From: Escherichia coli
Lineage (GTDB): Bacteria; Pseudomonadota; Gammaproteobacteria; Enterobacterales; Enterobacteriaceae
Assembly: GCF_002854065.1 (NCBI RefSeq)
Contig: NZ_CP024147.1
Length of the DNA stretch: 64,000 nucleotides
Reading direction: 5' to 3' (one strand)
A model generated the notes under the pieces. That model saw only the letters and a list, made by a program, of their open reading frames with translations. It made no database searches and was not told the origin of the DNA. This document shows positions 1,055-62,592 of the stretch, piece after piece. The position numbers and the translations under genes are program-made. Position 1 is the first letter of the stretch. Every line of letters begins with the position of its first letter.

Positions 1055-1870
1055 CTACGAATTGATATGTTCCTTGCTGTAACGCCGCTTCCACGCTGCT
1101 GGCGTTAAACCGGTGTGTTTGCGAAAAATCTGCCGGAAATAGCCAACGTCATTAAACCCGCACAACGCCGCCACTTCCGTGAGCGATCGCGCTTCGCTAA
1201 TTAACAGCTTTTCGGCTTCGCGCACCCGCTGGCGATGGATTGCTTCTGTTAACGTCAGATGAAACACCCGCCGGTAGACGCGCCCAAGATAATCGGCATT
1301 GCAGTACAGCTCGCGGGCCAGAAGCGCCGTAGAAAGCGGGCGATGATATTGCGTGCGGATCAGTTTCTGCGCTTTCCAGGCAAGGGTGGTGCCTGCGCCA
1401 TCGGCCTGTTCATCAAGACGCGCGTCACGGGTGAGCTGCTGCAAAATGAGCAGCACAATAAACTCCAGCGCCGGAGTGCGTTGATGCTTTTCCTGTTCGC
1501 TTAAGAACTGGCGAAACAGGGCCACCAGCGCCTGCGGATCGACAACCTTCGTTTGTTGCGGCACGCTAAGATGAGTAAGCCAGCGAGGGTCGTTGTCCGG
1601 CGCTTTAACCTCAAAATGCAGCCAGTAAAATTTGAGATCGGCGGGAAAATCCTCCACCCCAACATGTTGTCGGTTCGGCCAGAGTAATAAACTCTCTCCC
1701 GCATCGACCAGAAATATCCGTTCTTCTTCCTGAATCGTTAATCGACCTTTTTCGACAAAGATAATTTCCCATGACTCCAGCCGCCTTGCAGGATGCCTCC
1801 CTACGCCACGGGAAATAAATAATCCACCATTTTGCACTTTAATCGGTAACGTCATGGATAATTCGAGCAT
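1055..1870 (-). CDS. AraC/XylS-family transcriptional regulator
   Basis: 271-aa ORF; C-terminal half has the double helix-turn-helix AraC signature (...AALCGFNDVGYFRQIFRKHTGLTPAAWKRR); divergent from the transporter gene. Start could be the ATG at 1870 or 1855. Confidence 0.8.
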   Translation of the reverse strand: MLELSMTLPIKVQNGGLFISRGVGRHPARRLESWEIIFVEKGRLTIQEEERIFLVDAGESLLLWPNRQHVGVEDFPADLKFYWLHFEVKAPDNDPRWLTHLSVPQQTKVVDPQALVALFRQFLSEQEKHQRTPALEFIVLLILQQLTRDARLDEQADGAGTTLAWKAQKLIRTQYHRPLSTALLARELYCNADYLGRVYRRVFHLTLTEAIHRQRVREAEKLLISEARSLTEVAALCGFNDVGYFRQIFRKHTGLTPAAWKRRYSKEHINS

Positions 1871-1893
1871 TGATATGTAATTTCCCGCTTATT

Positions 1894-1943
1894 CATTAAT
1901 GATTAAACACATTACCTTTTGATTATTAATCAAAAACATTAAT
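1894..1943. promoter_or_regulatory. candidate AraC-type operator: two direct repeats in the divergent promoter region
   Basis: ATTAATGATTAAACACATTA (1894-1914) and ATTAATCAAAAACATTAAT (1925-1943) are similar direct repeats about 31 bp apart between the regulator and the transporter gene. Confidence 0.3.
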
Positions 1944-2095
1944 TTCACCTGATCTATTTCACACTTTTAAATTCAGGTCGGAATCGTCACCTTTTTTTAC
2001 TCTTTTCTCGCCTTGTTGATATTCCCGTTCACGGCAGAATTAATCAGGTCATTTCAATAAAACTAAAAATTGCTCCCTATTCACGAGGAATATCT

Positions 2096-3496
2096 ATGAC
2101 CTCTACACCGATTACTACCGCTGATATCGCTAAAGGTAAAATTGACGATGCGTTATCTGTACGGGAAAAAATAGGCTACGGCCTGGGTGACGCAGGCGGC
2201 ACCGTAATAACTTGCCTGATCATGAATTTTCTCACCTTTTTCTACACCGACGTTTTTGGATTAACTCCGGCGCTGGTTGGCACGCTGTTTATTGCACTGC
2301 GCGTGTTTGATGCCATCTCCGACCCGGTGATGGGCGTCATTGCCGACCGGACGCAAAGTCGCTGGGGGCGCTTTCGTCCGTGGCAGCTATGGATTGCCAT
2401 TCCCATCGGCATTATCGGCATCCTGACGTTCACCGTGCCAGATGCCAGCATGGGAGTAAAAATCGCCTGGGCGTTCGGTACTTACCTGCTCCTTTCAGTC
2501 GGTTATACCGCCATCAACGTACCGTACTGCGCGCTGATCAACACCATGACCACCCGCCACAATGAAGTGATCTCCTGCCAGTCCTGGCGATTCGTTCTCT
2601 GTGGCGTAGCGGGATTTCTGGTTTCGGTAGGCTTACCGTGGATGGTAGATCTCTTCGGTCAGGGTAATGCCGCGCGCGGCTATCAATTGGGCGTCGGCGT
2701 GCTGTGCGCCATTGCCGTGGTGATGTTCCTGTGCTGTTTTTTCTGGGTTCGTGAACGGGTGCCACTCTCCACAATGGGGAAATTTACCCTGCGCGAACAT
2801 CTTGCCGGGCTGCGGAACAACGACCAACTGCTGCTGATGCTGGTCATGTCTTTCCTGCTGATTAACGTCTTTAACATTCGCGGCGGTGGGTATATGTACT
2901 TCATTACCTACGTCTTACAAGGCAGTACGGGCTACACGTCGCTGTTCTTCACCATGGTCACCTTCGCCTCCATTATCGGCTCGGTGATTGTCAGCCCGTT
3001 AACGCGGCGTTTCGATACCGTCAAAATTTACTACTACACCAACCTGCTCCTCGCTGCGCTGGCAGTGTTGATGTGGTTCCTGCCCTCCGGCCCGGCTTAT
3101 CAAACGCTGTGGCTGGCGGTGATCCTCGGTAATGGCGTAATTCTTGGCTTCACATTGCCACTGCACTTCTCATTGATGGCCTTTGCCGATGACTACGGCG
3201 AGTGGAAAACCCGCGTACGTTCTTCCGGCATGAACTTCGCCTTCAATCTGTTTTTCATCAAGCTGGCCTGGGCCTCCAGCGCCGGGATCATCAGCCTGCT
3301 GTTTATTTTTGTCGCCTACCAGCCTGGCGTGGAAAACCAGACCGCCAGTTCGCTTGGCGGGATCGCGGCGATGGAAACATTACTGCCTGCGCTATTCCAC
3401 CTGCTGCTGGCAGGGGCGATCCGCTTTTGCAAACTCAATCATCCTATGATGTCACGCATAGCTACCGACCTGCGTCAGCGTCATGTACAGCCTTAA
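2096..3496 (+). CDS. GPH-family (glycoside-pentoside-hexuronide:cation symporter) MFS sugar transporter
   Basis: 466-aa ORF, hydrophobic throughout; N-terminal GYGLGDAGG...[21 protein letters not shown] motif is typical of MelB/YicJ-type symporters. Confidence 0.85.
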
Positions 3497-3506
3497 GGAG
3501 CACAAG

Positions 3507-5477
3507 ATGAACATTTCGGAAGTCGATCTGCATAAACTGACGGTCAGCGATCCGTTCCTCGGTCAGTACCAACAACTGGTCCGCGACGTGGTGATTCCTT
3601 ATCAGTGGGATGCTTTGAACGATCGTATCCCAGAAGCGGAACCCAGCCATGCGATTGAAAACTTTCGCATTGCCGCCGGACTTCAGGAGGGTGAATTTTA
3701 CGGGATGGTGTTTCAGGACAGCGACGTCGCCAAATGGCTGGAAGCAGTAGCCTGGTCGCTGTGCCAGAAGCCGGACGCCGAACTGGAAAAAACCGCCGAC
3801 GAGGTGATTGAACTGGTCGCCTCCGCCCAGTGCGAAGACGGCTATCTCAATACTTACTTTACGGTAAAAGCACCCGAAGAACGCTGGAGCAATCTGGCGG
3901 AGTGTCATGAACTTTACTGCGCAGGTCATCTGATTGAAGCCGGAGTCGCCTTCTTCCAGGCCACGGGAAAACGGCGCTTGCTGGGGGTCGTTTGCCGCCT
4001 GGCCGATCATATCGACAGCGTATTTGGTCCAGATGAAAGTAAGTTACACGGTTATCCTGGTCACCCGGAAATTGAACTGGCACTAATGCGCCTGTATGAA
4101 GTGACTGAAGAGCCGCGCTACCTGGCGCTGACGAACTATTTTGTCGAACAGCGTGGTGCGCAACCGCACTATTACGACCAGGAATATGAAAAGCGCGGGC
4201 AGACATCGCACTGGCACACCTACGGCCCGGCATGGATGGTGAAAGACAAAGCCTACAGCCAGGCACATTTGCCCCTTGCGCAACAGCAAACCGCCATCGG
4301 TCACGCGGTACGTTTTGTCTATCTGATGACCGGCGTCGCGCATCTCGCGCGTTTAAGTCACGATGACAGCAAGCGTCAGGACTGCCTGCGGCTGTGGAAC
4401 AATATGGCCCAGCGTCAGTTATATATTACCGGCGGCATTGGCTCGCAAAGCAGCGGCGAAGCGTTCACTAGCGATTACGATCTGCCGAATGACACGGTAT
4501 ACGCTGAAAGTTGCGCCTCCATCGGCCTGATGATGTTTGCCCGACGAATGCTGGAAATGGAAGGCGACAGTCAATATGCCGATGTGATGGAGCGCGCACT
4601 GTACAACACCGTGCTCGGCGGCATGGCGCTGGATGGCAAACATTTCTTCTATGTGAATCCGCTGGAAGTACATCCAAAATCGCTGAAATTCAACCATATC
4701 TACGATCACGTTAAACCGATCCGCCAGCGTTGGTTTGGCTGCGCTTGTTGTCCGCCAAATATCGCCCGCGTGCTGACCTCGATTGGTCATTATCTCTACA
4801 CGCCGCGTGAAGATGCGTTGTATATCAACATATACGCAGGAAACAGCATGGAAGTGCCGGTAGAAAATGGCACGCTGCGCCTGCGGGTTAGCGGGAACTA
4901 TCCGTGGCAGGAGCAGGTGACGATTGCGGTTGAATCGCCCCAGCCGGTACGTCATACGCTGGCTTTACGTCTGCCGGACTGGTGCACACAGCCGCAGATC
5001 ATATTGAATGGGGAAGAGGTCGAGCAGGATATTCGTAAAGGGTATTTGCACATTACCCGCGAATGGCAGGAGGGCGATACGCTGAATCTGACTTTGCCGA
5101 TGCCGGTACGCCGCGTTTACGGTAACCCGCTGGTGCGTCACGTCGCCGGAAAAGTGGCGATTCAGCGCGGCCCGCTGGTGTATTGCCTGGAACAGGCCGA
5201 CAACGGCGAGTCACTGCATAATCTGTGGCTGCCCACCGATGCGCCATTTACGACATTTGAAGGCAAGGGATTGTTTAGCCATAAGATCTTAATCCAGGCA
5301 CCGGGTTACCGGTATGAACAGAGCAATCCAGAGCAGCAACCGCTGTGGCATTACGACAGCGCGCCAGCCAAACGCCAGACGCAAACTCTGACCTTTATCC
5401 CATGGTTTAGCTGGGCCAACCGGGGTGAAGGCGAAATGCGGATCTGGGTGAATGAGGAAAAGCATTGCCATCCGTAG
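3507..5477 (+). CDS. glycoside hydrolase family 127 (DUF1680, beta-L-arabinofuranosidase-like)
   Basis: Start set at ATG 3507, preceded by AAGGAG; 656 aa; Cys-rich WFGCACCPPN motif resembles the GH127 catalytic/zinc site; lies 10 bp after the transporter stop, so probably co-transcribed. Confidence 0.75.
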   Translation: MNISEVDLHKLTVSDPFLGQYQQLVRDVVIPYQWDALNDRIPEAEPSHAIENFRIAAGLQEGEFYGMVFQDSDVAKWLEAVAWSLCQKPDAELEKTADEVIELVASAQCEDGYLNTYFTVKAPEERWSNLAECHELYCAGHLIEAGVAFFQATGKRRLLGVVCRLADHIDSVFGPDESKLHGYPGHPEIELALMRLYEVTEEPRYLALTNYFVEQRGAQPHYYDQEYEKRGQTSHWHTYGPAWMVKDKAYSQAHLPLAQQQTAIGHAVRFVYLMTGVAHLARLSHDDSKRQDCLRLWNNMAQRQLYITGGIGSQSSGEAFTSDYDLPNDTVYAESCASIGLMMFARRMLEMEGDSQYADVMERALYNTVLGGMALDGKHFFYVNPLEVHPKSLKFNHIYDHVKPIRQRWFGCACCPPNIARVLTSIGHYLYTPREDALYINIYAGNSMEVPVENGTLRLRVSGNYPWQEQVTIAVESPQPVRHTLALRLPDWCTQPQIILNGEEVEQDIRKGYLHITREWQEGDTLNLTLPMPVRRVYGNPLVRHVAGKVAIQRGPLVYCLEQADNGESLHNLWLPTDAPFTTFEGKGLFSHKILIQAPGYRYEQSNPEQQPLWHYDSAPAKRQTQTLTFIPWFSWANRGEGEMRIWVNEEKHCHP

Positions 5478-8907: not shown

Positions 8908-9338
8908 ATTTCCCTCAGAGAATATAAAAAAGAACAATTAACACATATTATGAAATGCCATGATGCAGTGCAATTTCCTTATTTATATAACGACATATTA
9001 TTTTTTATATACTTTCTGAAGTGTGCTGCGTGGCTTTTCAACAGGTCGAGGTTTATCATATTGAAATAATGGAACTATTGGCCAAATTTATGATTAAAAA
9101 CCGTAAAACATCCACAATGCAGATTAAGCGTATTAAACCTTCAATAATCTACCGTTTATTGCTGATTGTCCTCGGAATACCAATGGTGATTTACGGTCTG
9201 GTTTGCCCGCTCACCATCGAAACGCGAGATTAAACTCCTGGCAAAACACACCCCAGAAACGCACTTTTGTTGGCGTAGTCTGGGTTATTGCACACGTAGG
9301 TTTAAAACGTAAATTGTAACAACGTGCGCTTTGTTTAT

Positions 9339-9420
9339 GCCGGATGCGGCGTGTACGCCTTATCCGGCCTACGGTCAGGTCCCCGTAGGCATGATAAGAC
9401 GCGTAAGCGTCGCATCAGGC
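9339..9420. repeat. REP extragenic palindromes
   Basis: gccggatgcggcgtgtacgccttatccggcctac ... gacgcgtaagcgtcgcatcaggc downstream of aldB. Confidence 0.65.
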
Positions 9421-9451
9421 AATTAATACCCGATGCGACCAGCTTCTTACA

Positions 9452-10990
9452 TCAGAACAGCCCCAACGGTTTATCTGAGTAGCTCACCAGCAGGCACTTG
9501 GTTTGCTGGTAATGCTCCAGCATCATCTTGTGGGTTTCGCGTCCAATGCCTGATTGTTTGTAGCCGCCAAACGCCGCATGTGCCGGGTAAGCGTGATAAC
9601 AGTTGGTCCACACGCGCCCGGCCTGAATGCCGCGCCCCATCTTATAGGCCAGATTACCGTTGCGGCTCCAGACGCCTGCGCCCAGGCCATATTGCGTATC
9701 GTTCGCCAGCTCCAGCGCTTCTTCCATCGTTTTGAAGGTGGTCACCGCCAGCACCGGGCCAAAAATCTCTTCCTGGAACACCCGCATATTGTTCTGACCA
9801 AACAGAATCGTCGGTTCAAGGTAGTAGCCGTCTTTCAGTTCGCCTTCCAGCAGCTTGCGCCGCCCGCCGGTGAGCACGTCTGCGCCCTCTTTTTTACCGA
9901 TATCAATGTAGTTGAGGATGGTTTCCAGTTGCCCGTGAGAAACCTGCGCACCCATTTGCGTCACGCTGTCGAGTGGGTTACCGCTGCGAATGCTTTCGAC
10001 ACGGCGGATGGCGCGTTCCATAAAGCGTTCGTAGATTGACTCCTGCACTAAGGCACGACTCGGACAGGTGCAAACTTCGCCCTGGTTAAAGGCAAACAGT
10101 GCAAAGCCTTCCAGCGCTTTATCGAAAAAGGCATCTTCTTCATCCATCACATCAGCAAAGAAGATATTTGGCGACTTACCGCCCAACTCCAGCGTCACCG
10201 GAATAATGTTTTGCGTTGCGTATTGCATAATTTGTTGGCCCACTTCCGTTGAGCCGGTAAACGCCACTTTGGCGATGCGTTTCGAGGTCGCCAGATATTC
10301 GCCAATTTCCCCACCTGCGCCATTGACCACGTTCACCACGCCCGGCGGCAGTAAATCACCGACAATTTCCATTAGCAGCAGTACAGAAAGCGGGGTAAGA
10401 CGTGCGGGTTTCAGCACCACACAGTTGCCCGCCGCCAGCGCGGGAGCCATTTTCCAGCTCGCCATCAGCAGCGGGAAGTTCCACGGGATAATCTGCCCCA
10501 CCACGCCTAACGGTTCATGGAAATGATAGGCCACGGTTTCGCTATCAACTTCACTGATCCCACCTTCCTGCGCCCGAATACACGAGGCGAAATAGCGGAA
10601 ATGGTCAATCGCCAGCGGTACATCCGCAGCACTGGTTTCGCGAATGGGTTTGCCGTTATCCCAGGTTTCAGCTGTCGCTAACAGCTCGAGGTTTTGTTCC
10701 ATTCGATCGGCAATCTTAAACAGAATCGCCGCGCGATCCTGCACCGAGGTGTGCGCCCATTTATCTTTCACTTTGTGCGCAGCATCCAGCGCCAGATCGA
10801 TGTCTCGTTTGCCCGAAGACGCCACTTCGCACAGCAGCTGCCCGGTCACCGGCGTCAGGTTCTGGTAATACTCACCATCGGCAGGGGCTACCCATTCGCC
10901 GCCAATAAAGTTGTCATAGCGGTTTTTTAACTTGAGGGGGAAACCATACTCGCCGGGCTTAATCTGTGCTGAAGGGGGATTATTGGTCAT
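9452..10990 (-). CDS. aldB: NADP-dependent aldehyde dehydrogenase B
   Basis: Start set at ATG 10990 ([17 protein letters not shown]...), giving 512 aa; aldehyde dehydrogenase motifs (ELGGKSP, VCTCPSR); the track ORF over-extends upstream. Confidence 0.9.
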
Positions 10991-11154
10991 GATCGTCTCC
11001 TTGCGGTGTGAGGTATAACAAGGGTAGACGTGACTGGCGAAATCTTCGCCAGTCGGTAACAGCTTTACGACAGCTATCACGAATTTACGGGCAAGGATTA
11101 CAGAGATAGTTGAAAAAGCGGCTGACAATTTGCCAGCCGTTGTTGGAATGATGA

Positions 11155-12167
11155 TTACATTGCGGCGCGATAAATCGCCACAATTTCTTCGTGAGTTGCC
11201 TGGATCGGGTTAGTAAAGCCACAGGCATCTTTCAGGGCATTAGTCGCCAGAACCGCGAAATCTTCTTCTTTCACGTTCAGGTCGCGTAGGCCTGCCGGGA
11301 TATCCACTTTCTTCGCCAGTTCACGGATGGCGTTAATGCAGGCTTCAGCACCTTCCGCGTCGTTTTTACCTGTCACGTTCACGCCCATTGCAGCGGCACA
11401 GTCACGCAGACGTGCAGCGGCGACTTTGCTGTTGAATACCTGAACATGCGGCAGCAGAACGGCGTTACATACACCGTGTGGCAGGTTGTAGAAACCGCCC
11501 AGCTGGTGCGCCATCGCATGAACATAACCCAGAGAAGCATTATTGAACGCCATACCGGCGAGGAACTGGGCATAAGCCATTGCTTCACGCGCTTTCGCAT
11601 TACTGCCATCTTCAACGGCTAACGGCAGGTTTTCGGCAATCATGGTCACGGCTTTCAGTGCACAAGCGTCAGTGATCGGCGTGGCGGCAATAGAAACATA
11701 CGCTTCGATAGCGTGCGTTAAGGCATCCATACCCGTTGCGGCGGTCAGTGACTTCGGCATACCAATCATCAGAGAGGAGTCATTGACAGAAAGCAGCGGA
11801 GTGACATGTTTATCAACAATCGCCATTTTGATATGACGCGCTTCGTCAGTGATGATGCAGAAACGGGTCATTTCAGAGGCCGTACCCGCCGTGGTATTGA
11901 TGGCGATCATCGGCAGCTGCGGTTTTGCAGAGCGGTCAACGCCTTCGTAATCGCGAATATCGCCGCCATTGGCTGCCACCAGCGCAATACCTTTTGCGCA
12001 GTCGTGCGGAGAACCACCGCCTAAGGAAATCACGCTATCGCAATTATTTTCTTTAAGTAATTTCAAACCTGCAGCGACGTTTTCCGTGGTGGGGTTAGGT
12101 TGGGTGCCATCATAAATAATGCTAAAAATATTGCGTTCTTCCAGTGCTTTTTGCACATCGCCCGCCA
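11155..12167 (-). pseudogene. yiaY: iron-containing alcohol dehydrogenase gene, 5'-truncated by IS1
   Basis: Fe-ADH frame (…[20 protein letters not shown]…) reads uninterrupted into the IS1 terminal repeat at 12168; about 45 N-terminal codons and the native promoter are absent. Confidence 0.8.
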
Positions 12168-12182
12168 GGTAATGACTCCAAC

Positions 12183-12686
12183 TTATTGATAGTGTTTTAT
12201 GTTCAGATAATGCCCGATGACTTTGTCATGCAGCTCCACCGATTTTGAGAACGACAGCGACTTCCGTCCCAGCCGTGCCAGGTGCTGCCTCAGATTCAGG
12301 TTATGCCGCTCAATTCGCTGCGTATATCGCTTGCTGATTACGTGCAGCTTTCCCTTCAGGCGGGATTCATACAGCGGCCAGCCATCCGTCATCCATATCA
12401 CCACGTCAAAGGGTGACAGCAGGCTCATAAGACGCCCCAGCGTCGCCATAGTGCGTTCACCGAATACGTGCGCAACAACCGTCTTCCGGAGACTGTCATA
12501 CGCGTAAAACAGCCAGCGCTGGCGCGATTTAGCCCCGACATAGCCCCACTGTTCGTCCATTTCCGCGCAGACGATGACGTCACTGCCCGGCTGTATGCGC
12601 GAGGTTACCGACTGCGGCCTGAGTTTTTTAAGTGACGTAAAATCGTGTTGAGGCCAACGCCCATAATGCGGGCAGTTGCCCGGCAT
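12183..12686 (-). CDS. insB: IS1 InsB (expressed as InsAB' by -1 frameshift)
   Basis: 167-aa [28 protein letters not shown]..., overlapping insA in the -1 frame. Confidence 0.95.
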
Positions 12687-12880
12687 CCAACGCCATTCAT
12701 GGCCATATCAATGATTTTCTGGTGCGTACCGGGTTGAGAAGCGGTGTAAGTGAACTGCAGTTGCCATGTTTTACGGCAGTGAGAGCAGAGATAGCGCTGA
12801 TGTCCGGCGGTGCTTTTGCCGTTACGCACCACCCCGTCAGTAGCTGAACAGGAGGGACAGCTGATAGAAACAGAAGCCAC
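12605..12880 (-). CDS. insA: IS1 InsA
   Basis: 91 aa, [43 protein letters not shown]... Confidence 0.95.
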
Positions 12881-12963
12881 TGGAGCACCTCAAAAACACC
12901 ATCATACACTAAATCAGTAAGTTGGCAGCATCACCTATTATTGTTTAGCAAAATTAATCTAAT

Positions 12964-13007
12964 AAAAAGCACATTGTATTCATTAAACAATGTGCTTTTT
13001 TTAAAAT
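12964..13007. terminator. perfect hairpin, probable bidirectional rho-independent terminator downstream of selB
   Basis: aaaagcacattgt-attcatta-acaatgtgcttttttt: 13-bp perfect stem with an A-tract on one side and T-tract on the other; sits in the 85-bp spacer between the two IS1 copies. Confidence 0.6.
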
Positions 13008-13035
13008 CATAAGAATTTTGGGTAATGACTCCAAC

Positions 13036-13539
13036 TTATTGATAGTGTTTTATGTTCAGATAATGCCCGATGACTTTGTCATGCAGCTCCACCGATTTTG
13101 AGAACGACAGCGACTTCCGTCCCAGCCGTGCCAGGTGCTGCCTCAGATTCAGGTTATGCCGCTCAATTCGCTGCGTATATCGCTTGCTGATTACGTGCAG
13201 CTTTCCCTTCAGGCGGGATTCATACAGCGGCCAGCCATCCGTCATCCATATCACCACGTCAAAGGGTGACAGCAGGCTCATAAGACGCCCCAGCGTCGCC
13301 ATAGTGCGTTCACCGAATACGTGCGCAACAACCGTCTTCCGGAGCCTGTCATACGCGTAAAACAGCCAGCGCTGGCGCGATTTAGCCCCGACGTATCCCC
13401 ACTGTTCGTCCATTTCCGCGCAGACGATGACGTCACTGCCCGGCTGTATGCGCGAGGTTACCGACTGCGGCCTGAGTTTTTTAAATGGCGGAAAATCGTG
13501 TTGAGGCCAACGCCCATAATGCGGGCGGTTGCCCGGCAT
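13036..13539 (-). CDS. insB: IS1 InsB (variant)
   Basis: 167 aa; [21 protein letters not shown]... vs copy 1 [21 protein letters not shown]...; YDRLRKT vs YDSLRKT. Confidence 0.9.
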
Positions 13540-13733
13540 CCAACGCCATTCATGGCCATATCAATGATTTTCTGGTGCGTACCGGGTTGAGAAGCGGTGT
13601 AAGTGAACTGCAGTTGCCATGTTTTACGGCAGTGAGAGCAGAGATAGCGCTGATGTCCGGCAGTGCTTTTGCCGTTACGCACCACCCCATCAGTAGCTGA
13701 ACAGGAGGGACAGCTGATAGAAACAGAAGCCAC
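13458..13733 (-). CDS. insA: IS1 InsA (variant)
   Basis: 91 aa; differs from copy 1 (…NTIFRHLKN… vs …NTILRHLKN…). Confidence 0.9.
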
Positions 13734-13831
13734 TGGAGCACCTCAAAAACACCATCATACACTAAATCAGTAAGTTGGCAGCATCACCGAATTTTGTATT
13801 AATTTATTTTAAAACTTAATTAATCATTTCC

Positions 13832-15676
13832 TTATTTTTCCGGAAATAATAATGCGTCGCGCAATAAATGATCATTTCCACGACGACGCGTAAAGCCAAT
13901 GCGGTCAAAATATTCCAGGATTTGAATCGCCAGTTTTCGCCCAACCCCTAAGCGATCGCGGAAATCCGCCGCGCAGGTTGAACCACATTCCTGATCGAGA
14001 TCGCGGATCATATTGGCAAACTCGACAATCCGATCGTTACGGTAATAACGATCTTTGACGATCGCGGTAATTATCCCCTGTTGGGCCGCCTGGCGTAGCG
14101 TCAGACGCATTGCCTGCTCGTCGGTTCCCGTCTCTTTTGCCAGGTCACGCACCCACCACGGTTCGTCACCAAACAGCGGCTCTGCTTTTTGCCAGATGGC
14201 CTGCTGCTCTTCGCTGAAGCCCGCTTTGTGATCCGGCAGATGCAGCCAACCGTGATGACTGAGGATGTCGCCGCTTTCGCGCATCTTTTCAATCAGCAAC
14301 AGTACCAGCGCTTCATCTTCCATTGGCAACGCCATACGTCGCAGACGTTCGCGCCCAGGACCAGGTTCATCGCGATGTTGCTCATGATAAGTCGCTAATG
14401 TGTCGAGAATTTTCCGCTGCCAGCGGGCGGCAACTGGCGCATTCAACAAGCTATAACCAGCCTGAATATAGCCCGGCTGTTGCAGTAGTTCGCGCATCCC
14501 TTCGCCGTTGAGCTGGCGTGCCCAGGCGAAATCCGCAAGGTTAACCGCTCCGCGTTCCAGATGAACAGATAACGCATCGGCATCGCTCTGCGCCCGTGCA
14601 AGAGACGCCAGCCATTGCAGATATTCCGGCTTACGTTTACCGCGACGCGGCGGGTTAAGCATCACCACACGTGCCCCCGCCAGCGTATTGCGGGCCGAGA
14701 TATCGCGCAACACTAAGCGATCGTTATCCGCCAGCCACAGCGGCGTGTCGAACACCAGCTCGGCAAGGTTATCTTCCAGCAGCGAAACGCGTCCCGTAAC
14801 GTGGCTGGCGGCGTGGTGAATATGCAGCGGCTGCCACTGGGTCAGCGGCGTATGGGTTTGAAGCTCGACAATCACCCGCGTGAACGGCTCTGGCGGCACA
14901 TCGGCAAGCAGCCAGTCGCCACGGTTAATCTGCTCTTTTTCCGCATCCCCCGCGATGTTAAGCGCGATACGCTGGCCGGCATGAGCGGTTTCTGTTGGCT
15001 GGTTTTGTGCATGCAGCGCACGTACACGCATCGGTTTATTTACACCAGTCAGCCATAGTGAATCGCCTACCGTCACTTCCCCGCTTAACGCCGTACCGGT
15101 GACGACCAGCCCGGCACCTTTTACGGTAAATGCGCGGTCGATCGCGAGGCGGAAACTATGTTGGCTGGCGTGTTCACGTTCTGGTAACTGAAGCAGATGC
15201 TCGCGCAGGGCATCAATTCCCCGACCCTCGGTTGCTGCGGTGATAAACAGTTTTGCCTCAGCAAAACCGTATTCCCGCAGCACCTCCTTTACCTGGCGTT
15301 CAACCTCATTAACACGCGCTTCGTCCACGCGATCGGCTTTGGTCAGCGCCACTGTCAGCATCGGGTTACCGGTCAGCTGCAAAATCGCCAGATGCTCACG
15401 GGTCTGTGCCATCACACCGTCATCGCACGCCACCACCAACAGCGCGTGATCGATACCACCAACGCCCGCCAGCATGTTGGAAAGAAACTTTTCATGACCG
15501 GGTACGTCGATAAAACCAGGCACGCGACCATCCGGCTGCGGCCAGTAGGCATAGCCGAGATCGATGGTCATGCCGCGCTTTTTTTCTTCCGGCAGACGAT
15601 CGGCATTTACGCCAGTAATCGCCTGCAATAAGGTTGTTTTGCCGTGGTCAACGTGTCCGGCAGTCGCAATAATCAT
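13832..15676 (-). CDS. selB: selenocysteine-specific translation elongation factor
   Basis: 614-aa ORF; N-terminal GTPase motifs ([24 protein letters not shown]). Confidence 0.95.
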
Positions 15677-17770: not shown

Positions 17771-17840
17771 GCCGAGTCCTTTGTGCGAGGAAAAATATCA
17801 GTATGGCTCAGGCTCACGCAAAACACAGGTGATATAAGTC

Positions 17841-25170: not shown

Positions 25171-25854
25171 ATGAATCTAAAAAAGACACTATTAAGCGTG
25201 TTAATGATATCGCCACTCTGCATATTGACAGGGTGTGACTATATTGGAAAAGCAAAACTAATCGACGATCTCTCCAAACAACAAGAGTTGCAAAAAGGTA
25301 AAATAGAGCAACTTGAAAAACAACAAGAACAAGATAAACGCAAGATAGAACTATTTGAAAAACAGCAAACTGCCATCATAAATAGTACCAAAACGCTTGC
25401 TAGTGTGGTGAAGGCGGTTAAAGAAAAGCAGGATGAATTTGTCTTCACAGAATTTAACCCAGCACAAACACAATACTTCATTTTAAATAACGGCTCTGTC
25501 GGTTTGGCGGGTCGGGTGCTGGCTATTGATGCAGTTGAAAACGGCAGCGTTATTCGTATTTCGCTGGTCAACCTATTAAGCGTTCCCGTATCAAATATTG
25601 GTTTTCATGCTACATGGGGCAATGAAAGGCCCACCGATGCCAAAGCTCTGGCGAAGTGGCAACAATTACTTTTCAATACCACCCTGAATTCCACTCTGCA
25701 ATTAATGCCTGGTCAATGGCAAGACATTAATCTGACATTAAAAGGCGTTTCGCCTAATAACCTGAAGTATCTGAAGTTGTCCATCAATATGGACAATCTC
25801 CAGTTCGACACAGTTCAACCTGCTGAAACTCGGCAGCGAAAAAACAAAAAATAA
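25171..25854 (+). CDS. SadB-like inner-membrane lipoprotein (putative trimeric-autotransporter biogenesis helper)
   Basis: 227-aa ORF; signal peptide with lipobox LTGC and Asp at +2 (CD, inner-membrane retention signal); heptad-like coiled coil (QQELQKGKIEQLEKQQEQDKRKIELFEKQQ); AAGGA 8 nt before the ATG; 43 bp upstream of the adhesin gene. Confidence 0.75.
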   Translation: MNLKKTLLSVLMISPLCILTGCDYIGKAKLIDDLSKQQELQKGKIEQLEKQQEQDKRKIELFEKQQTAIINSTKTLASVVKAVKEKQDEFVFTEFNPAQTQYFILNNGSVGLAGRVLAIDAVENGSVIRISLVNLLSVPVSNIGFHATWGNERPTDAKALAKWQQLLFNTTLNSTLQLMPGQWQDINLTLKGVSPNNLKYLKLSINMDNLQFDTVQPAETRQRKNKK

Positions 25855-25897
25855 ATGCAGCTTCTGCGCTTATATCAAGGAATAGAGAACATCAATA

Positions 25898-28800
25898 ATG
25901 AACAAAATATTTAAAGTAATCTGGAATCCGGCGACGGGCAGTTATAGCGTTGCCAGCGAAACGGCGAAGAGCCGTGGTAAGAAATCTGGTCGCAGTAAGC
26001 TGTTAATTTCTGCACTGGTTGCGGGTGGAATGTTGTCGTCGTTTGGGGCAAATGCCAGTGCGACACTTGATGGAGGTTCATCTATTGAAGACCCATCAAT
26101 GGGTACTCGCTGGCTTGCAATCGGTGAGGGCGCAAAAGCAACATCCGCGTTACAAGGTGATGGATATACCGTTGCGATAGGGCTTAATGCACTAGCAGAT
26201 GGTCAGGGTAGTCTTGCATTCGGCTACGATACCCACTCATCGGGTGATCGTTCTATCTCTATTGGCCAATATGCTGAATCCGCAGGAAACAGAACCATTG
26301 CTTTCGGTAGTGGGTCCAAGGCAATAGGAGACTATTCGCTTGCATTAGGAGGAACTACCTATACAGGTGGTGACTACTCCATTGCAGTGGGTAGGGATTC
26401 GAGGGTAGAAGACGATGCTGATTACGCCTCCTCTTTTGGTTACGGCGCCAAGGCAGGCGGGGTCTATAGCATGGCATTCGGTTTCGAAACTAAAGCTAAT
26501 GCCGTTGACAGCCTGGCAATGGGACGACTAGCTACAGCCAGTGCAGCAAACGCTATTGCGATAGGTGCAGAGGCTGAAGCCGCTGAAAATGCGATGGCTA
26601 TTGGCAATAATGCGAAGGCAAAAGGGACTAATAGCATGGCAATGGGGTTCGGAAGCCACGCCGATAAAGTCAATACTATCGCATTAGGAAATGGCAGCCA
26701 GGCTCTGGCAGATAATGCAATCGCCATAGGCCAGGGCAACAAAGCTGATGGCGTGGATGCCATCGCTCTGGGTAATGGTAGCCAGTCGAGAGGCTTAAAC
26801 ACCATTGCCTTAGGCACAGCCAGTAATGCAACTGGTGATAAGAGTCTTGCGCTTGGTAGTGATACCACTGCCAACGGTATTAACTCCGTCGCATTGGGTG
26901 CAGGTTCCACTGCGGATTTAGACAATACCGTCTCTGTCGACAATAGTTCATTAAAACGCAAGATCGTTAATGTGAAAAATGGCGCGATCAAGTCTGACAG
27001 TTACGATGCCATTAATGGTTCACAGCTTTATGCCATTAGCGACTCGGTAGCACAAAGGCTTGGGGGAGGATCATCAGTAGATGTTGATGACGGTACTGTT
27101 ACAGCACCAACCTACAATTTAAAAAATGGTAGCAAAAAGAACGTAGGGGCTGCGCTCACTGTACTTGATGAAAACACCCTGCAATGGGACCAAATCAAAG
27201 GCAAATACAGCGCTGCTCATGGTACTAGTAGCCCAACTGCCAGCGTAATCACCGATGTTGCGGATGGCACGATTTCAGCCTCCAGTAAGGAGGCGGTTAA
27301 CGGCTCCCAACTGCAAGCTACCAATGACGATGTTGAGGCCAACACCACCAATATCACCAACCTGACGGATTCCGTTGGTGACCTTCAGGCTGATGCCCTG
27401 CTCTGGAACGAAACTAAAAAGGCATTCAGTGCAGCTCACGGCCAGGATACCACCAGCAAAATCACCAACGTTAAAGATGGCGACCTGACGGCTGGCAGCA
27501 CTGATGCCGTTAACGGCTCTCAGCTGAAAACCACCAACGATGCTGTGGCGACGAATACCACCAATATCGCCAATAACACTTCCAATATTGCCACTAACAC
27601 CACCAACATCTCTAACCTGACTGAGACGGTGACTAACCTTGGTGAAGATGCGCTGAAATGGGATAAGGACAATTGTGTCTTCACGGCAGCTCATGGCACC
27701 GATGCCACCAGCAAAATCACCAATGTTAAAGATGGCGACCTGACGGCTGGCAGCACTGATGCCGTTAACGGCTCTCAGCTGAAAACTACCAACGATGCTG
27801 TGGCGACGAATACCACCAATATCGCCAATAACACTTCCAATATTGCCACTAACTCCACCAACATCTCTAACCTGACTGAGACGGTGACTAATCTTGGTGA
27901 GGATGCTCTGAAATGGGATAAGGACAATGGTGTCTTCACGGCAGCTCACGGCACCGAGGCCACCAGCAAAATCACCAACGTTAAAGATGCCGACCTGACG
28001 GCTGACAGCACCGATGCCGTTAACGGCTCTCAGCTGAAAACCACCAACGATGCCGTGGCGACGAATACCACCAATATCGCCACTAACACTTCCAATATTG
28101 CCACTAACACCACCAACATCTCTAACCTGACTGAGACGGTGACTAACCTTGGTGAAGATGCGCTGAAATGGGATAAGGACAATGGTGTATTCACGGCAGC
28201 TCACGGCACAGAAGCCACCAGCAAAATCACCAACGTTAAAGATGCCGACCTGACGGCTGGCAGCACTGATGCCGTTAACGGCTCCCAGCTGAAAACCACC
28301 AACGATGCTGTGGCGACGAATACCACCAATATTGCCACTAACACCACCAACATCTCTAACCTGACTGAGACGGTGACTAATCTTGGTGAGGATGCGCTGA
28401 AATGGGATAAGGACAATGGTGTATTCACGGCAGCTCATGGCAACAACACCGCCAGCAAAATCACCAATATCCTGGACGGCACAGTCACTGCAACCAGTTC
28501 CGATGCCATTAACGGCAGCCAGCTTTATGACTTAAGCAGCAATATCGCCACCTACTTCGGCGGCAATGCTTCTGTGAATACTGACGGTGTGTTTACCGGT
28601 CCAACCTACAAAATCGGTGAAACAAATTATTATAACGTCGGCGATGCACTGGCTGCGATTAACTCCTCATTTAGCACGTCTCTCGGCGATGCCCTGCTTT
28701 GGGACGCTTCCGTAGATAAATTTAGTGCCAAACACGGTACTAATGGTGACGCAAGCGTGATCACTGATGTCGCAAACGGGGATGTTTCAAGCACAAGCTC

Positions 28801-31111
28801 TGATGCTGTGAACGGCTCGCAACTCTATACCACCAATAAGTACGTCGTAGATGCGCTGGGTGGTGGTGCCGAAGTCAATGCAGACGGCACCATCACTGCG
28901 CCGACGTACACCATTGCTAATGCTGATTACGATAACGTCGGTGATGCCCTGAACGCCATCGACACCACTCTCGATGATGCTCTGCTCTGGGATACGGACG
29001 CCGGTGAAAATGGTGCATTTAGCGCCGCTCACGGAAAAGATAAAACTGCCAGTGTAATCACTAACGTCGCAAACGGTGCAATTTCCTCCACCAGCAGCGA
29101 TGCTGTTAACGGCTCACAACTCTATACTACCAATCAGTACATAGTCGATGCGCTGGGTGGTGACGCAGAAGTTAACGCTGACGGCACCATCACCGCACCG
29201 ACTTACACCATTGCGAATACCGATTACAACAACGTCGGTGACGCCCTGGATGCGCTTGATGATAACGCCCTGCTGTGGGATGAGACTGCCAATGGCGGTG
29301 CAGGAGCCTACAATGCCAGCCATGACGGTAAAGCCAGCATCATCACTAATGTCGCTGATGGCAGTATTAGTGAGGACAGCACCGATGCAGTGAACGGTTC
29401 TCAGTTGAATGCGACGAATATGATGATTGAGCAGAACAGCCAAATCATCAATCAGCTTGCTGGTAATACCGACGCAACCTATATCGAAGAAAATGGCGCT
29501 GGTATCAACTACGTTCGTACTAACGACAACGGTTTAGCCTTTAACGATGCAAGCGCCTCTGGTGTCGGCGCTACAGCTGTAGGTTATAACGCTGTCGCGT
29601 CTGGTGCCAGCAGCGTAGCCATTGGTCAGAACAGCAGCAGCACCGTTGATACCGGTATTGCGCTGGGTAGCAGCTCCGTTTCCAGCCGTGTAATTGCCAA
29701 AGGTTCTCGTGACACTAGCGTAACGGAAAATGGCGTGGTGATTGGTTATGACACCACTGACGGCGAACTGCTAGGTGCATTGTCAATTGGTGATGACGGT
29801 AAATACCGCCAAATCATCAACGTAGCTGATGGTTCAGAAGCCCATGACGCCGTTACGGTTCGTCAGTTGCAGAACGCTATTGGAGCGGTCGCCACTACGC
29901 CAACCAAGTACTTTCACGCCAACTCAACGGCAGAAGACTCACTGGCCGTTGGTGAAGACTCGCTGGCAATGGGTGCGAAAACTGTCGTTAATGGTAATGC
30001 AGGTATTGGTATCGGTTTGAACACTCTGGTTCTGGCTGATGCGATCAACGGCATTGCTATCGGCAGTAACGCACGCGCAAACCATGCAAACAGTATTGCA
30101 ATGGGTAACGGTTCTCAGACCACCCGTGGTGCACAGACTGGCTACACCGCCTACAACATGGACGCACCGCAGAACTCTGTAGGTGAGTTTTCTGTTGGTA
30201 GTGAAGACGGTCAACGTCAGATCACCAACGTCGCAGCTGGTTCAGCGGATACCGATGCGGTTAACGTGGGTCAGTTGAAAGTCACTGATGAGCGCGTAGC
30301 GCAAAATACCCAGAGCATTACTAACCTGAACAATCAGGTCACTAATCTGGATACTCGCGTTACTAATATCGAAAACGGTATTGGCGATATCGTGACCACC
30401 GGTAGCACCAAGTACTTCAAGACCAACACCGATGGCGTAGATGCCAACGCCCAGGGTAAAGATAGCGTTGCGATTGGTTCTGGTTCCATTGCTGCCGCTG
30501 ACAACAGCGTCGCACTGGGTACAGGCTCCGTGGCCAACGAAGAAAACACGATCTCTGTGGGTTCTTCTACCAACCAGCGCCGTATCACCAACGTAGCTGC
30601 CGGTGTTAATGCCACCGATGCGGTTAACGTGTCGCAGCTGAAATCTTCTGAAGCAGGCGGCGTTCGCTACGACACCAAAGCTGATGGCTCTATCGACTAC
30701 AGCAACATCACTCTTGGTGGTGGCAACGGAGGTACGACTCGCATCAGCAACGTTTCCGCAGGTGTGAACAACAACGACGCGGTGAACTACGCGCAGTTGA
30801 AGCAAAGCGTGCAGGAAACAAAGCAATACACCGATCAGCGCATGGTTGAGATGGATAACAAACTGTCTAAAACTGAAAGCAAGTTGAGCGGGGGTATCGC
30901 TTCTGCAATGGCAATGACCGGTCTGCCGCAGGCTTACACTCCAGGTGCCAGCATGGCTTCTATTGGTGGCGGTACTTACAACGGTGAATCGGCAGTTGCT
31001 TTAGGTGTATCGATGGTGAGCGCCAATGGTCGTTGGGTCTACAAATTACAAGGTAGTACCAATAGCCAGGGTGAATACTCCGCCGCACTCGGTGCCGGTA
31101 TTCAGTGGTAA
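25898..31111 (+). CDS. upaG: trimeric autotransporter adhesin (YadA-like; UpaG/EhaG/SadA family)
   Basis: 1737-aa ORF; extended signal peptide [27 protein letters not shown]...; repetitive head/neck/stalk motifs; C-terminal YadA-type anchor (...[15 protein letters not shown]...[38 protein letters not shown]). Position between yibL and lldP fits what I recall for upaG/ehaG/sadA. Confidence 0.85.
27392..28390 (+). repeat. in-frame tandem repeats inside the adhesin gene (255-bp / 85-aa unit)
   Basis: Units start at 27392, 27647, 27902 and 28157 (the last 21 bp shorter); a degenerate fifth starts at 28391. Units are more than 95% identical by eye ([29 protein letters not shown]...TNLGE). Confidence 0.85.
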
Positions 31112-50125: not shown

Positions 50126-51100
50126 ATGCGGGTTTTGATCGTTAAAACATCGTCGATGGGCGATGTTCTCCATACGTTGCCCGCACTCACTGATGCCCAG
50201 CAGGCAATCCCAGGGATTAAATTTGACTGGGTGGTGGAAGAAGGGTTCGCACAGATTCCTTCCTGGCACGCTGCCGTTGAGCGAGTTATTCCTGTGGCAA
50301 TACGTCGCTGGCGTAAAGCCTGGTTCTCGGCCCCCATAAAAGCGGAACGCAAAGCGTTTCGTGAAGCGCTACAAGCAGAGAACTATGACGCAGTTATCGA
50401 CGCTCAGGGGCTGGTAAAAAGCGCGGCGCTGGTGACGCGTCTGGCGCATGGCGTAAAGCATGGCATGGACTGGCAAACCGCTCGCGAACCTTTAGCCAGC
50501 CTGTTTTACAATCGTAAGCATCATATTGCAAAACAGCAGCACGCCGTAGAACGCACCCGCGAACTGTTTGCCAAAAGTTTGGGCTATAGCAAACCGCAAA
50601 CCCAGGGCGATTATGCTATCGCACAGCATTTTCTGACGAACCTGCCTACAGATGCTGGCGAATATGCCGTATTTCTTCATGCGACGACCCGTGATGATAA
50701 ACACTGGCCGGAAGAACACTGGCGAGAATTGATTGGTTTACTGGCTGATTCAGGAATACGGATTAAACTTCCGTGGGGCGCGCCGCATGAGGAAGAACGG
50801 GCGAAACAACTGGCGGAAGGATTTGCTTATGTTGAAGTATTGCCGAAGATGAGTCTGGAAGGCGTTGCCCGCGTGCTGGCCGGGGCTAAATTTGTAGTGT
50901 CGGTGGATACGGGATTAAGCCATTTAACGGCGGCACTGGATAGACCCAATATCACGGTTTATGGACCAACCGATCCGGGATTAATTGGTGGGTATGGGAA
51001 GAATCAAGTAGAGTGTCGTTCTACAAGTATGTCTCTTGCAGATTTGCCAGCTCAAACCGTTTTTCAAAATTTAAATCTTGAAATAATAATCAATAAGTGA
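50126..51100 (+). CDS. waaC: LPS heptosyltransferase I
   Basis: 324-aa ORF, GT9 family; last ~30 residues differ from the K-12 C-terminus as I recall it. Confidence 0.9.
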   Translation: MRVLIVKTSSMGDVLHTLPALTDAQQAIPGIKFDWVVEEGFAQIPSWHAAVERVIPVAIRRWRKAWFSAPIKAERKAFREALQAENYDAVIDAQGLVKSAALVTRLAHGVKHGMDWQTAREPLASLFYNRKHHIAKQQHAVERTRELFAKSLGYSKPQTQGDYAIAQHFLTNLPTDAGEYAVFLHATTRDDKHWPEEHWRELIGLLADSGIRIKLPWGAPHEEERAKQLAEGFAYVEVLPKMSLEGVARVLAGAKFVVSVDTGLSHLTAALDRPNITVYGPTDPGLIGGYGKNQVECRSTSMSLADLPAQTVFQNLNLEIIINK

Positions 51101-51113
51101 CATCGGAGATAAG

Positions 51114-52322
51114 ATGACCTCAACATTATTTTTCTCTCTCGAGAAAAAAAACTGGATAGCGTACTGGAACAGAGCTCTCGTATTCTTATTCATTACCACC
51201 TATTTTTTGGGTGAGATTACAAGGTATAAACATCTTATTGTTATTCTTATGACAATAACGACAATCGTCTATCTCTGCAAACGGCCAAAACACTATCTCT
51301 CACTATTTAAAACATTTCTTTTTGGTAGTGTTGCCATATTAACTATTGCTGCATTGCTGTCACTTCTTCAATCCCCTGATGCAGGTGCTAGCATGAAGGA
51401 AATTTTCAAAGCTATTATTGAGAATACTTTACTATGCACAATAGCAATACCGGTCATATTGAGAGACGAGAAAAGAGAAGATGTCGAAAAAATCGTTTTC
51501 TTCTCATTTATTAGTGCGTTGGGCTTACGCTGTTTTTCTGAATTGATTACCTATTATAAGGACTATCAACAAGGGATAATGCCATTCGCAGATTATAGAC
51601 ACCGTAGCATTTCTGACTCGATGGTCTTTTTATTCCCTGCATTGTTAAATCTCTGGCTTATCAAATCAGCAAAATACCGCATTTCTTTTGTGGTTCTAAG
51701 CTTTATTTTTATTTTTCTGATATTAGGAACTTTATCCAGAGGGGCCTGGCTTTCCGTGTTAGTCATTGGATTAATATGGATTCTGATGTTTAAACAATGG
51801 AAGTTACTATTAGTAGGAGTAATGGTTTCCATCATTGCATTGTCGGTTATTTTCACACATAAGGAGATGACCGCAAAGCTAACGTATAAACTTCAACAAA
51901 CTAATAGTTCTTATCGCTATGCAAATGGTACTCAAGGCAGCGCACTCGATCTAATATTAGAAAATCCTGTTATTGGTTATGGTTACGGTAACGTTGCATA
52001 TAAAGATGTCTATAATAAACGTGTCGTTGATTATCCAGAATGGACCTTTAGACAATCAATAGGGCCACATAATTTTGCGCTATTCATCTGGTTTGGCACT
52101 GGTTTATTAGGACTGGTAAGTCTTATGATGCTATACTGTGCAATATTGAAAGAGTGTATAAAAAATGGCGTCCAGAATAAATACCGCTCACCATATAATG
52201 CATATTATATAATCTTACTATCTTTTATAGGTTATTTTGTTATCCGTGGAAACGTAGAACAAATTGAACCAAATTTATTAGGCGTTTACGCCGGCTTATT
52301 ATTAGCGATGAAAAACAAGTAA
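51114..52322 (+). CDS. waaL: O-antigen ligase
   Basis: 402-aa AT-rich polytopic membrane ORF at the waaL position after waaC. Confidence 0.85.
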   Translation: MTSTLFFSLEKKNWIAYWNRALVFLFITTYFLGEITRYKHLIVILMTITTIVYLCKRPKHYLSLFKTFLFGSVAILTIAALLSLLQSPDAGASMKEIFKAIIENTLLCTIAIPVILRDEKREDVEKIVFFSFISALGLRCFSELITYYKDYQQGIMPFADYRHRSISDSMVFLFPALLNLWLIKSAKYRISFVVLSFIFIFLILGTLSRGAWLSVLVIGLIWILMFKQWKLLLVGVMVSIIALSVIFTHKEMTAKLTYKLQQTNSSYRYANGTQGSALDLILENPVIGYGYGNVAYKDVYNKRVVDYPEWTFRQSIGPHNFALFIWFGTGLLGLVSLMMLYCAILKECIKNGVQNKYRSPYNAYYIILLSFIGYFVIRGNVEQIEPNLLGVYAGLLLAMKNK

Positions 52323-52323
52323 A

Positions 52324-52356
52324 AAATAAAAAAGGCTGCATAATGCGGCCTTTTTA
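52324..52356. terminator. bidirectional rho-independent terminator between convergent waaL and outer-core genes
   Basis: aaaaaaggctgcat-aatgcggcctttttatttatt: GC stem flanked by A- and T-tracts. Confidence 0.6.
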
Positions 52357-52357
52357 T

Positions 52358-53500: not shown

Positions 53501-53508
53501 CTCGAATG

Positions 53509-54522: not shown

Positions 54523-54546
54523 TTTAATTACCCTTCATCATAATCA

Positions 54547-55254
54547 TTATTTGCTCTTCAAACCTAGTTTGACTTTTACATCCCTGATTGCTTTTTTAAT
54601 TTTCTTTTTGAATATAAGATATGTATAGCCAAAGTCTTTCAATTCATTTTTTATATTATAGTGCCGTTCAAGATCAATGCGATCTTTTGCTTTTAAAACT
54701 GCGGTTGTTTTTTTACCTGAAAGGTCAATTAGTCTTAAACCTTTTTCGGATACTATAAAATTTCCTTTATGAGGATCGCCAGACACCATTCCATGCTGAT
54801 GCAACTCTTTTATCGATTCTGATAATTGATCCTTCAGTTCTTCAGAAATTTCCAAATACTCATTTAACCCGATACCTTCAATATACTCAATGAGCATAAT
54901 ATAATAATGCGCGAAATTTAATGTTTTACGTTCAGCAAGCAAAAAATAGTCATTAATTGATTGAATGCCTTCACCACGTACCCGATCGGTTTGATAAATT
55001 AAATTTTCATAATAATCTTTTTTTATGCAAGATTTTAAGAAACGTTCGATCATTTTATGCTTTGGCGCATAAACTTTAAGTACAAGAGGTCCACGAGCAG
55101 TGTCAATAAGAATAACTTTAGTATCATCAATAGAACGAAAAACTTTTAATGTTTTAACCCTGCAAGTTAAAAAATCATTCAGAACTTGCTCATAAAAGGG
55201 ATCATTATCTTTTATGAAAACTTTCAACCCATTTATCGTTTTATTATATATCAT
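54547..55254 (-). CDS. waaY: LPS core heptose II kinase
   Basis: 235-aa ORF; kinase-like motifs (…HQHGMVSGDPHKGNFIV…). Confidence 0.8.
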   Translation of the reverse strand: MIYNKTINGLKVFIKDNDPFYEQVLNDFLTCRVKTLKVFRSIDDTKVILIDTARGPLVLKVYAPKHKMIERFLKSCIKKDYYENLIYQTDRVRGEGIQSINDYFLLAERKTLNFAHYYIMLIEYIEGIGLNEYLEISEELKDQLSESIKELHQHGMVSGDPHKGNFIVSEKGLRLIDLSGKKTTAVLKAKDRIDLERHYNIKNELKDFGYTYLIFKKKIKKAIRDVKVKLGLKSK

Positions 55255-55279
55255 ATTGAATTATTTTAACCTTAAATCT

Positions 55280-56287: not shown

Positions 56288-56329
56288 ATTTATTCTGTAT
56301 CCAAAATTTTGGCAAAAATAAGTTACGGG

Positions 56330-59711: not shown

Positions 59712-61476
<1,765 letters not shown>

Positions 61477-62421: not shown

Positions 62422-62592
<171 letters not shown>

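Follow-up and report, generated by a model that had tools for sequence, protein, structure and literature searches.

Within the window analysed here, a stretch of 64,000 nucleotides (64 kb) of Escherichia coli DNA, the gene yiaY breaks off inside its coding region against an IS1 element, which raises the question of how this junction arose and what is left of the gene. A preliminary description had proposed an IS1 insertion followed by an adjacent deletion that took away the yiaY start and promoter. It was right about the positions it gave, but overlooked a second IS1 copy nearby (13021-13788). In the following, the element at the junction is called copy A and the second one copy B; they are the only two IS1 copies within the 64-kb window.

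Copy A is a complete IS1 of 768 bp and of the IS1A type, located on the minus strand at 12168-12935. Its terminus at 12168 reads GGTAATGACTCCAACTTATTGAT and the opposite one, ending at 12935, reads GGTGATGCTGCCAACTTACTGAT (reverse complement); the two match at 18 of 23 positions, as imperfect terminal inverted repeats of ~23 bp. Both insA (12605-12880, minus strand, 91 aa) and insB (12183-12686, minus strand, 167 aa) are intact and transcribed in the same direction as yiaY. They are joined by an A6C -1 frameshift motif, TTAAAAAAC, on the minus strand at ~12625-12633. The element is identical at 768/768 positions to IS1 copies of strains VTB97420v and EC23HZZ201 and differs by 1 nucleotide (99.87% identity) from RefSeq-annotated IS1A elements. 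Since the 9-bp flanks, cgcccgcca (12159-12167) and tattattgt (12936-12944), differ from each other, copy A has no target-site duplication, and IS1 does adjoin an internal yiaY codon in the way first described. The duplication of 8-9 bp that marks a simple IS1 insertion is present at copy B, but not at copy A.

Alignment to the yiaY-selB region of E. coli K-12 MG1655, which served as the reference for the locus, defines what has been lost. Window positions 9001-12167 correspond to K-12 3754522-3757688, positions 12936-13020 to K-12 3757897-3757981, and the window from 13789 onward to K-12 from 3757974 onward. The flanks of copy A map to K-12 3757688 and 3757897, and exactly 208 bp are missing between them (K-12 3757689-3757896, equivalent to 6966-7173 in the relative locus L009). 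These 208 bp are contiguous in K-12 and the gap falls precisely at both termini of copy A; that is, the termini adjoin sequences which lie 208 bp apart in IS-free relatives, as expected of a deletion scar. Of the missing segment, 139 nt belong to yiaY (its first 46 codons plus one base of codon 47), and the other 69 bp lie upstream. The earlier estimate that the frame is about 45 codons short was thus close to the actual 46 codons and one base, and in practice residues 1-47 are lost. In the intact relative examined, the segment contains the AGGAG ribosome-binding site and the ATG of yiaY. As to the start and promoter, then, the proposal is borne out for the ATG, the ribosome-binding site and the 69 bp, whereas a consensus scan of the deleted 69 bp in the intact relative gave no match to a promoter on the yiaY strand. 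It is reasonable to suppose, rather than demonstrated, that the promoter went along with the 69 bp upstream.

A protein identical to the SelB of the window occurs in many E. coli assemblies, and eight loci from public assemblies that encode this exact protein were used as a same-lineage set. All eight carry a 383-aa yiaY, no IS1 and the 208 bp, so the N-terminus is not simply absent from the whole lineage. Their flanks are 99.9-100% identical to those of the window, with 0-2 mismatches over the 3,168-bp left flank and 1-6 over the 5,212-bp right flank; the closest locus shows 0 mismatches over 3,168 bp and 1 mismatch over 5,212 bp. At the site of copy A, the only difference between the window and the eight loci is those 208 bp. 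Because the flanks are nearly identical, the relatives have an intact yiaY and no IS1, and the yiaY remnant has acquired neither a frameshift nor an internal stop, we regard the event as recent. Judged from these sequence comparisons, the insertions and the deletion are confined to the strain of the window or to a narrow sublineage. A Shigella origin, which had been considered on account of the IS1, is not supported: the flanks are 99.9-100% identical to ordinary E. coli assemblies, and the 64 kb hold just two IS1.

The remnant of yiaY, a 5'-truncated pseudogene for an Fe-dependent alcohol / L-threonine dehydrogenase, occupies 11155-12167 on the minus strand and was delimited by reading frame, protein alignment and Pfam. 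Besides two bases of codon 47, it retains codons 48-383 together with the stop codon, and its product would be identical to residues 48-383 of K-12 YiaY at 335/336 positions, with one substitution. From the stop codon, which ends at 11155, the frame stays open as far as 12167 and continues into the terminus of IS1, so the dehydrogenase frame indeed runs into IS1 at 12168. The nearest in-frame stop upstream lies 20 codons inside copy A, and the first ATG, GTG or TTG after it is the GTG at 12156 (Val51), the same GTG from which the remaining ORF had been said to start. This GTG is preceded by GGCGGGCGAT, a poor Shine-Dalgarno sequence, and the remnant contains no ATG and no ribosome-binding site. 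An exact look-up of the 333-aa protein that would start at the GTG found it not to be on record. Beyond the 3' end of yiaY, a terminator-like hairpin is present at 11139-11119, and the neighbouring aldB is intact in the window.

At the protein level, the match to the Pfam model PF00465 (Fe-ADH, 168 positions) begins only at position 42, positions 1-41 being missing, whereas PF25137 (ADH_Fe_C) is covered completely (1-194/194, E = 1.6e-83), which leaves the C-terminal metal-binding domain intact. The alignment of full-length YiaY with the solved structure of Zymomonas ADH2 (3OWO) begins at residue 1, and the lost residues are therefore part of the conserved fold. We take them to include the aspartate at about position 39 through which enzymes of this family touch the ribose of NAD. 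The remnant would accordingly lack the first strands of the nucleotide-binding domain. With the start codon and ribosome-binding site gone and the N-terminal domain incomplete, yiaY is probably a dead gene in the strain of the window, as the preliminary description also held. At the IS1 end that faces the remnant, a promoter scan detected neither a hybrid promoter nor one directed outwards. The only nearby promoter-like sites are the insA promoters, one in each IS1, so a transcript of the remnant would presumably arise solely by read-through from an IS1 insA promoter, which points in the same direction.

The far side of copy A joins the terminator-like region downstream of selB, in agreement with what had been reported before. 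Here, 85 bp of the yiaY-selB spacer (12936-13020, 19% G+C) have remained in situ and now lie between the two IS1 copies; they are 96.5% identical to K-12 3757897-3757981 and 100% identical to the same-lineage loci. Within them, a terminator-like hairpin on the minus strand (12964-13000) has a 14-bp stem between A and U runs. Its RNA fold has a predicted energy of -18.6 kcal/mol (z = -4.69), and 0/200 shuffled sequences were as stable; owing to its 9-nt loop, it escaped the consensus scan. An Rfam scan of the locus returned no RNA family. Copy B (13021-13788, minus strand), an IS1B-type isoform in the same orientation as copy A and 85 bp away from it, follows directly. Its flanks map to K-12 3757981 and 3757974, an 8-bp overlap that corresponds to the duplication gaattttg on its left (13013-13020) and right (13789-13796), and copy B is therefore a simple insertion. 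It differs from copy A at 9 positions between alignment columns 325 and 669, and since the two represent different isoforms (IS1A-type versus IS1B-type), we consider them independent arrivals. The gene selB itself (13832-15676, minus strand, 614 aa) is intact. Copy B was inserted 37 bp downstream of its stop codon, so that the 3' flank of selB now runs into copy B and the gene is separated from the hairpin at 12964-13000.

Two directly oriented IS1 around a short segment resemble a composite transposon of the Tn9 type, and we considered this reading for the IS1-85 bp-IS1 arrangement. It was rejected. Unlike in a Tn9-like composite, the outer flanks (cgcccgcca and gaattttgt) form no duplication and the isoforms differ. 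The 85-bp segment, moreover, is native spacer in its original position, which means that the arrangement did not arrive as a unit.

A survey of 5,426 complete RefSeq E. coli genomes was carried out with queries for the left and right junctions of copy A, for the 85-bp bridge and for the junction of copy B. With these junction-specific queries, the exact structure of the window was found in 0 of the 5,426 genomes. Full-length matches to the bridge query proved to be unrelated IS1 tandems on plasmids with 76-78% identity, and the high-coverage matches H7 and H17 were artefacts that join yiaY with an IS1 upstream of aldB and share no junction. The exact 27-mer of the left junction likewise had 0 matches in the GTDB species representatives. 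A structure seen in no other genome may raise the suspicion of an assembly artefact, in which a true order of IS1, the 208 bp (with duplications) and a further IS1 was collapsed; yiaY would then be interrupted, not deleted. IS1 repeats are a classic cause of such collapse, and short reads would have difficulty with three of them within ~2 kb. On the other hand, copy B is resolved with nine isoform-specific differences and clean junctions, and the 208 bp occur nowhere else in the 64-kb window, which hence contains no intact yiaY 5' end in another place. We consider a collapsed assembly most unlikely.

The junction queries matched 34 and 31 genomes, and we mapped the IS1 junctions of 23 loci from other strains to K-12 coordinates. 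At least 20 genomes carry IS1 within 303 bp (K-12 3757679-3757981), at no fewer than 18 distinct positions. Inside the zone, I3, 22F46, E3, STEC276, BS90R-A, 19KM1863, Eco_23-3511, WP2-S18, ZH142, 2012EL-2448 and EC931 carry simple insertions flanked by 9-bp duplications; two simple insertions are located deeper in yiaY, in GDSC2239PM and as the second one of E3. Nine zone genomes show IS1-bounded rearrangements of 3-14 kb in which the IS1 has no duplication. In seven of these (NH-21, PM7, TUM2820, cM8a, LR-71-1, 730V1 and TOK-001) 12-14 kb are lost and IS1 is joined to yiaL, yiaM, yiaN or the yiaL-yiaM spacer, while EC23HZZ201 has lost 3.4 kb at its IS1 and VTB97420v exhibits an inversion-type IS1 junction. 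All nine have IS1 in the same orientation, with the selB-side junction in the zone and the other end 3.4-14 kb off, the deletions extending mostly leftwards; the apparent bias in orientation results from the queries, which were orientation-specific. The event in the window shares with these other E. coli cases the element, its orientation and the 303-bp zone. It differs in extent: the deletions elsewhere span 3.4-14 kb and remove aldB and yia genes, whereas that of the window comprises 208 bp and leaves aldB in place.

Several cut sites have been used more than once. The right junction of the window (K-12 3757897) recurs exactly in NH-21, the left cut site (K-12 3757680-88) in cM8a and LR-71-1, with the simple insertion of I3 1 bp away, and the site of copy B in EC931 and TOK-001. 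As controls, the same IS1 end was joined to a 50-mer of the mtlA upstream spacer or of aldB; these chimeric queries found no true junction at either locus, and the five matches obtained with each were chance extensions elsewhere. The 303-bp zone, which covers the 5' end of yiaY and the yiaY-selB spacer, has at least 18 distinct sites in 20 of the 5,426 genomes, against none at the two control loci. It may be a genuine IS1 hot spot, hitherto undescribed, whose 9-bp cut sites are used again and again and which would seed IS1-bounded deletions of 0.2-14 kb in unrelated E. coli lineages, removing yiaY, aldB and yiaL-yiaW; the window would then represent the smallest deletion. We give this reading an even chance. 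A preference of IS1 for AT-rich DNA has long been known. The excess of IS1 could simply reflect this preference, because the yiaY-selB spacer has 14-19% G+C and the control loci are less AT-rich; the counts, besides, are uncorrected for kinship among lineages.

For the origin of the copy A structure, our best explanation is a classical IS1 adjacent deletion by intramolecular replicative transposition, which we hold at middling confidence. According to this proposal, an IS1A-type element would have inserted at tattattgt in the very AT-rich yiaY-selB spacer, with its transposase genes pointing in the direction of yiaY. Its other end would then have attacked cgcccgcca, a 9-bp site within yiaY 208 bp off, in an intramolecular replicative transposition. 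The DNA between would have been lost as a circle, and the one IS1 left behind would combine an old flank with a new one, free of any target duplication. Independently, a second IS1, copy B, landed 85 bp from copy A as a simple insertion. We infer in which order the steps of the deletion took place, which junction marks the original insertion and that transposase was required. An intermediate of the copy A structure was found neither in the complete RefSeq E. coli genomes and the GTDB species representatives nor by exact-protein look-up.

A missing target duplication has two standard routes, usually adjacent deletion or recombination between IS copies (PMC11708052). The earlier proposal is upheld as regards an IS1-associated deletion of 208 bp, while its insertion followed by adjacent deletion is one of these two routes. 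Along the other, two IS1 would have inserted in the same orientation, one in yiaY with cgcccgcca duplicated (K-12 3757680-88) and one in the spacer with tattattgt duplicated (K-12 3757897-905). RecA-type homologous recombination between the 768-bp copies would subsequently have removed the 208 bp together with one copy. What would be left is one IS1 whose two flanks stem from different parents, the outcome for yiaY being unchanged. We regard this history as a serious candidate, albeit one that we would on balance not back.

Several observations speak for such recombination. Both half-sites are used elsewhere, the right one in NH-21 and the left one in cM8a and LR-71-1 (one base away in I3); because cgcccgcca is the right half-site of the IS1 in cM8a and LR-71-1, an independent insertion there is plausible. 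Multiple IS1 hits in the zone do occur, since the window itself carries two directly oriented copies with 85 bp between them, and in strain E3 yiaY contains two IS1. Recombination between IS copies is also a frequent cause of missing target duplications (PMC11708052). A mosaic test, in which copy A was compared with 24 other IS1 copies, detected a mosaic IS1 in NH-21 and possibly in LR-71-1. The IS1 of NH-21, which has the same right junction as the window, combines a divergent IS1 (columns 1-307) with IS1A, and IS1 x IS1 recombination has consequently taken place at this locus. Copy A, however, gave no mosaic signal; it is the common IS1A isoform, and identical parents would leave no mark. 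Nor was a genome with the double insertion present among the complete RefSeq E. coli. Recombination would furthermore need three events rather than two since the short divergence from IS1-free relatives. This difference in the number of events slightly favours the adjacent deletion, and so do the nine genomes that keep the selB-side junction of IS1 while the other end lies 3.4-14 kb away. The two routes give an identical product.

A third conceivable origin is a single step, in which the insertion of IS1 took place at a DNA break or coincided with a deletion, and a target duplication never existed (the 'IS-del' type). The final structure is compatible with it, and IS movements may coincide with deletions that leave no duplication, but in the same study the small IS-del cases are in the end attributed to adjacent deletion (PMC11708052). 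IS-del has been proposed for IS5 and IS481, and both junctions of the window are IS1 cut sites elsewhere, which fits normal target choice by the transposase. A one-step event is accordingly improbable.

Returning to the adjacent deletion, the arrangement has well-known counterparts, and IS1-mediated deletion of this kind has been known for fifty years. The classical IS1 adjacent deletions are reportedly those at gal (Reif and Saedler 1975), and Turlan and Chandler (1995) are said to have described replicative intramolecular IS1 deletions. As in IS1 adjacent deletions generally, an intact IS1 is kept in the window, one of its ends has a neighbour that is not the original one, there is no target duplication, and the missing DNA begins exactly at the IS terminus. 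Mechanistically we see no difference; the deletion in the window is small (208 bp), and the anchor could lie on either side. When IS1/Tn9 produces deletions by intramolecular transposition, the element that stays behind has no direct repeats around it (PMC9330008, section 5.2.1). Homologous recombination between directly repeated IS copies, as discussed for IS-flanked deletions in the long-term evolution experiment (PMC11708052), leaves a single IS with mismatched flanks as well; copy A differs in having no mosaic signature, and no two-copy ancestor was found.

Taken as a whole, the locus is a real, recent, strain-specific and mechanistically ordinary IS1-mediated pseudogenisation of yiaY. Its importance is mainly one of annotation: yiaY should be listed as a pseudogene next to two IS1 copies, and selB is cut off from the terminator-like hairpin. 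YiaY is an accessory dehydrogenase that is not essential, and the main threonine dehydrogenase is encoded by tdh, at another place in the window region. A strong phenotype is not to be expected. With its two IS1 in tandem, the locus is an unstable substrate: if copy A recombined with copy B, another 853 bp would be lost. At the level of populations, the pattern is that of a small AT-rich spacer which is repeatedly hit by IS1 and forms one boundary of recurrent deletions in the yia region. The repeated hits of IS1 on this spacer in different E. coli are the sole aspect that may merit a separate look, and they could serve as a natural data set on IS1 target choice and IS-driven gene loss.

Insertions of IS1 in the 5' end of yiaY and in the yiaY-selB spacer are found in 20 of the 5,426 complete E. 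coli genomes searched, and they occupy at least 18 distinct positions. The region counted comprises the equivalents of K-12 (MG1655) 3757679-3757981 in loci fetched from other E. coli genomes (L002, L003, L014, L017-L031 and L033-L035). Nine of these IS1 copies lack a target-site duplication and bound rearrangements of 3.4-14 kb, most of which extend to yiaL-yiaN. At two control loci we found no true IS1 junction. The yiaY 5' end together with the yiaY-selB spacer is possibly a regional hot spot for IS1 and a recurrent deletion boundary.

In strain NH-21, a mosaic IS1 (2783-3550 of locus L017) is located exactly at the position that forms the right junction of copy A, the IS1 truncating yiaY in the window (K-12 3757897). 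Columns 1-307 of this element represent a divergent IS1 type, which is about 95% identical to IS1A and resembles the copy of strain I3, and the remainder is IS1A. The mosaic is direct evidence that different IS1 copies have recombined at the yiaY-selB locus. The IS1 of LR-71-1 also contains a short stretch of the divergent type.

Other parts of the window also differ from K-12. At 1043-1053, about 9 kb of K-12 sequence (3741825-3750800, most of plaR/yiaJ through sgbE) are missing. This junction, an 11-bp overlap without an IS, is common to 426 of the 5,426 complete genomes and therefore represents a lineage polymorphism. Next to it lies a three-gene cluster (1055-5477) that is not present in K-12, where only the pseudogene remnants ysaC/ysaD are found as its counterpart. 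Its products are a regulator of the AraC family, a sugar:cation symporter of the GPH family and a relative of aceric acid hydrolase (664 aa) that scores below the curated cut-off. In the avtA-ysaA spacer region, which also holds a REP-like repeat, an Rfam match to the sRNA ES036 (CssrF) was obtained on the minus strand (214-256), its score of 39.7 bits being slightly above the gathering score of 37.6 bits.

At 17807-17840 the window lacks the rhsA-yibU segment of K-12 (about 8.2 kb, 3761993-3770241); yibH and yibI follow almost directly after yibF. Between yibL and lldP (25171-31111), the window carries a 6.5-kb insertion relative to K-12 with two products: a putative lipoprotein of 227 aa that matches no family, and a trimeric autotransporter adhesin of 1,737 aa whose internal units are highly repetitive. 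The LPS core (waa) region (51006-64000), which includes a JUMPstart element on the minus strand (59349-59387), is likewise unlike that of K-12: 51006-56434 has no match there and 56434-64000 shows only 88.9% identity, indicating a different core type.

Beside selB, a second complete IS1 (copy B, 13021-13788) is present in the same orientation as copy A; its isoform is another one, with 9 differences. Copy B is a simple insertion 37 bp past the selB stop codon, flanked by an 8-bp target duplication (13013-13020 and 13789-13796), and it separates a terminator-like hairpin (12964-13000) from selB. Copies A and B constitute a direct IS1 pair, and recombination between them could remove a further 853 bp.
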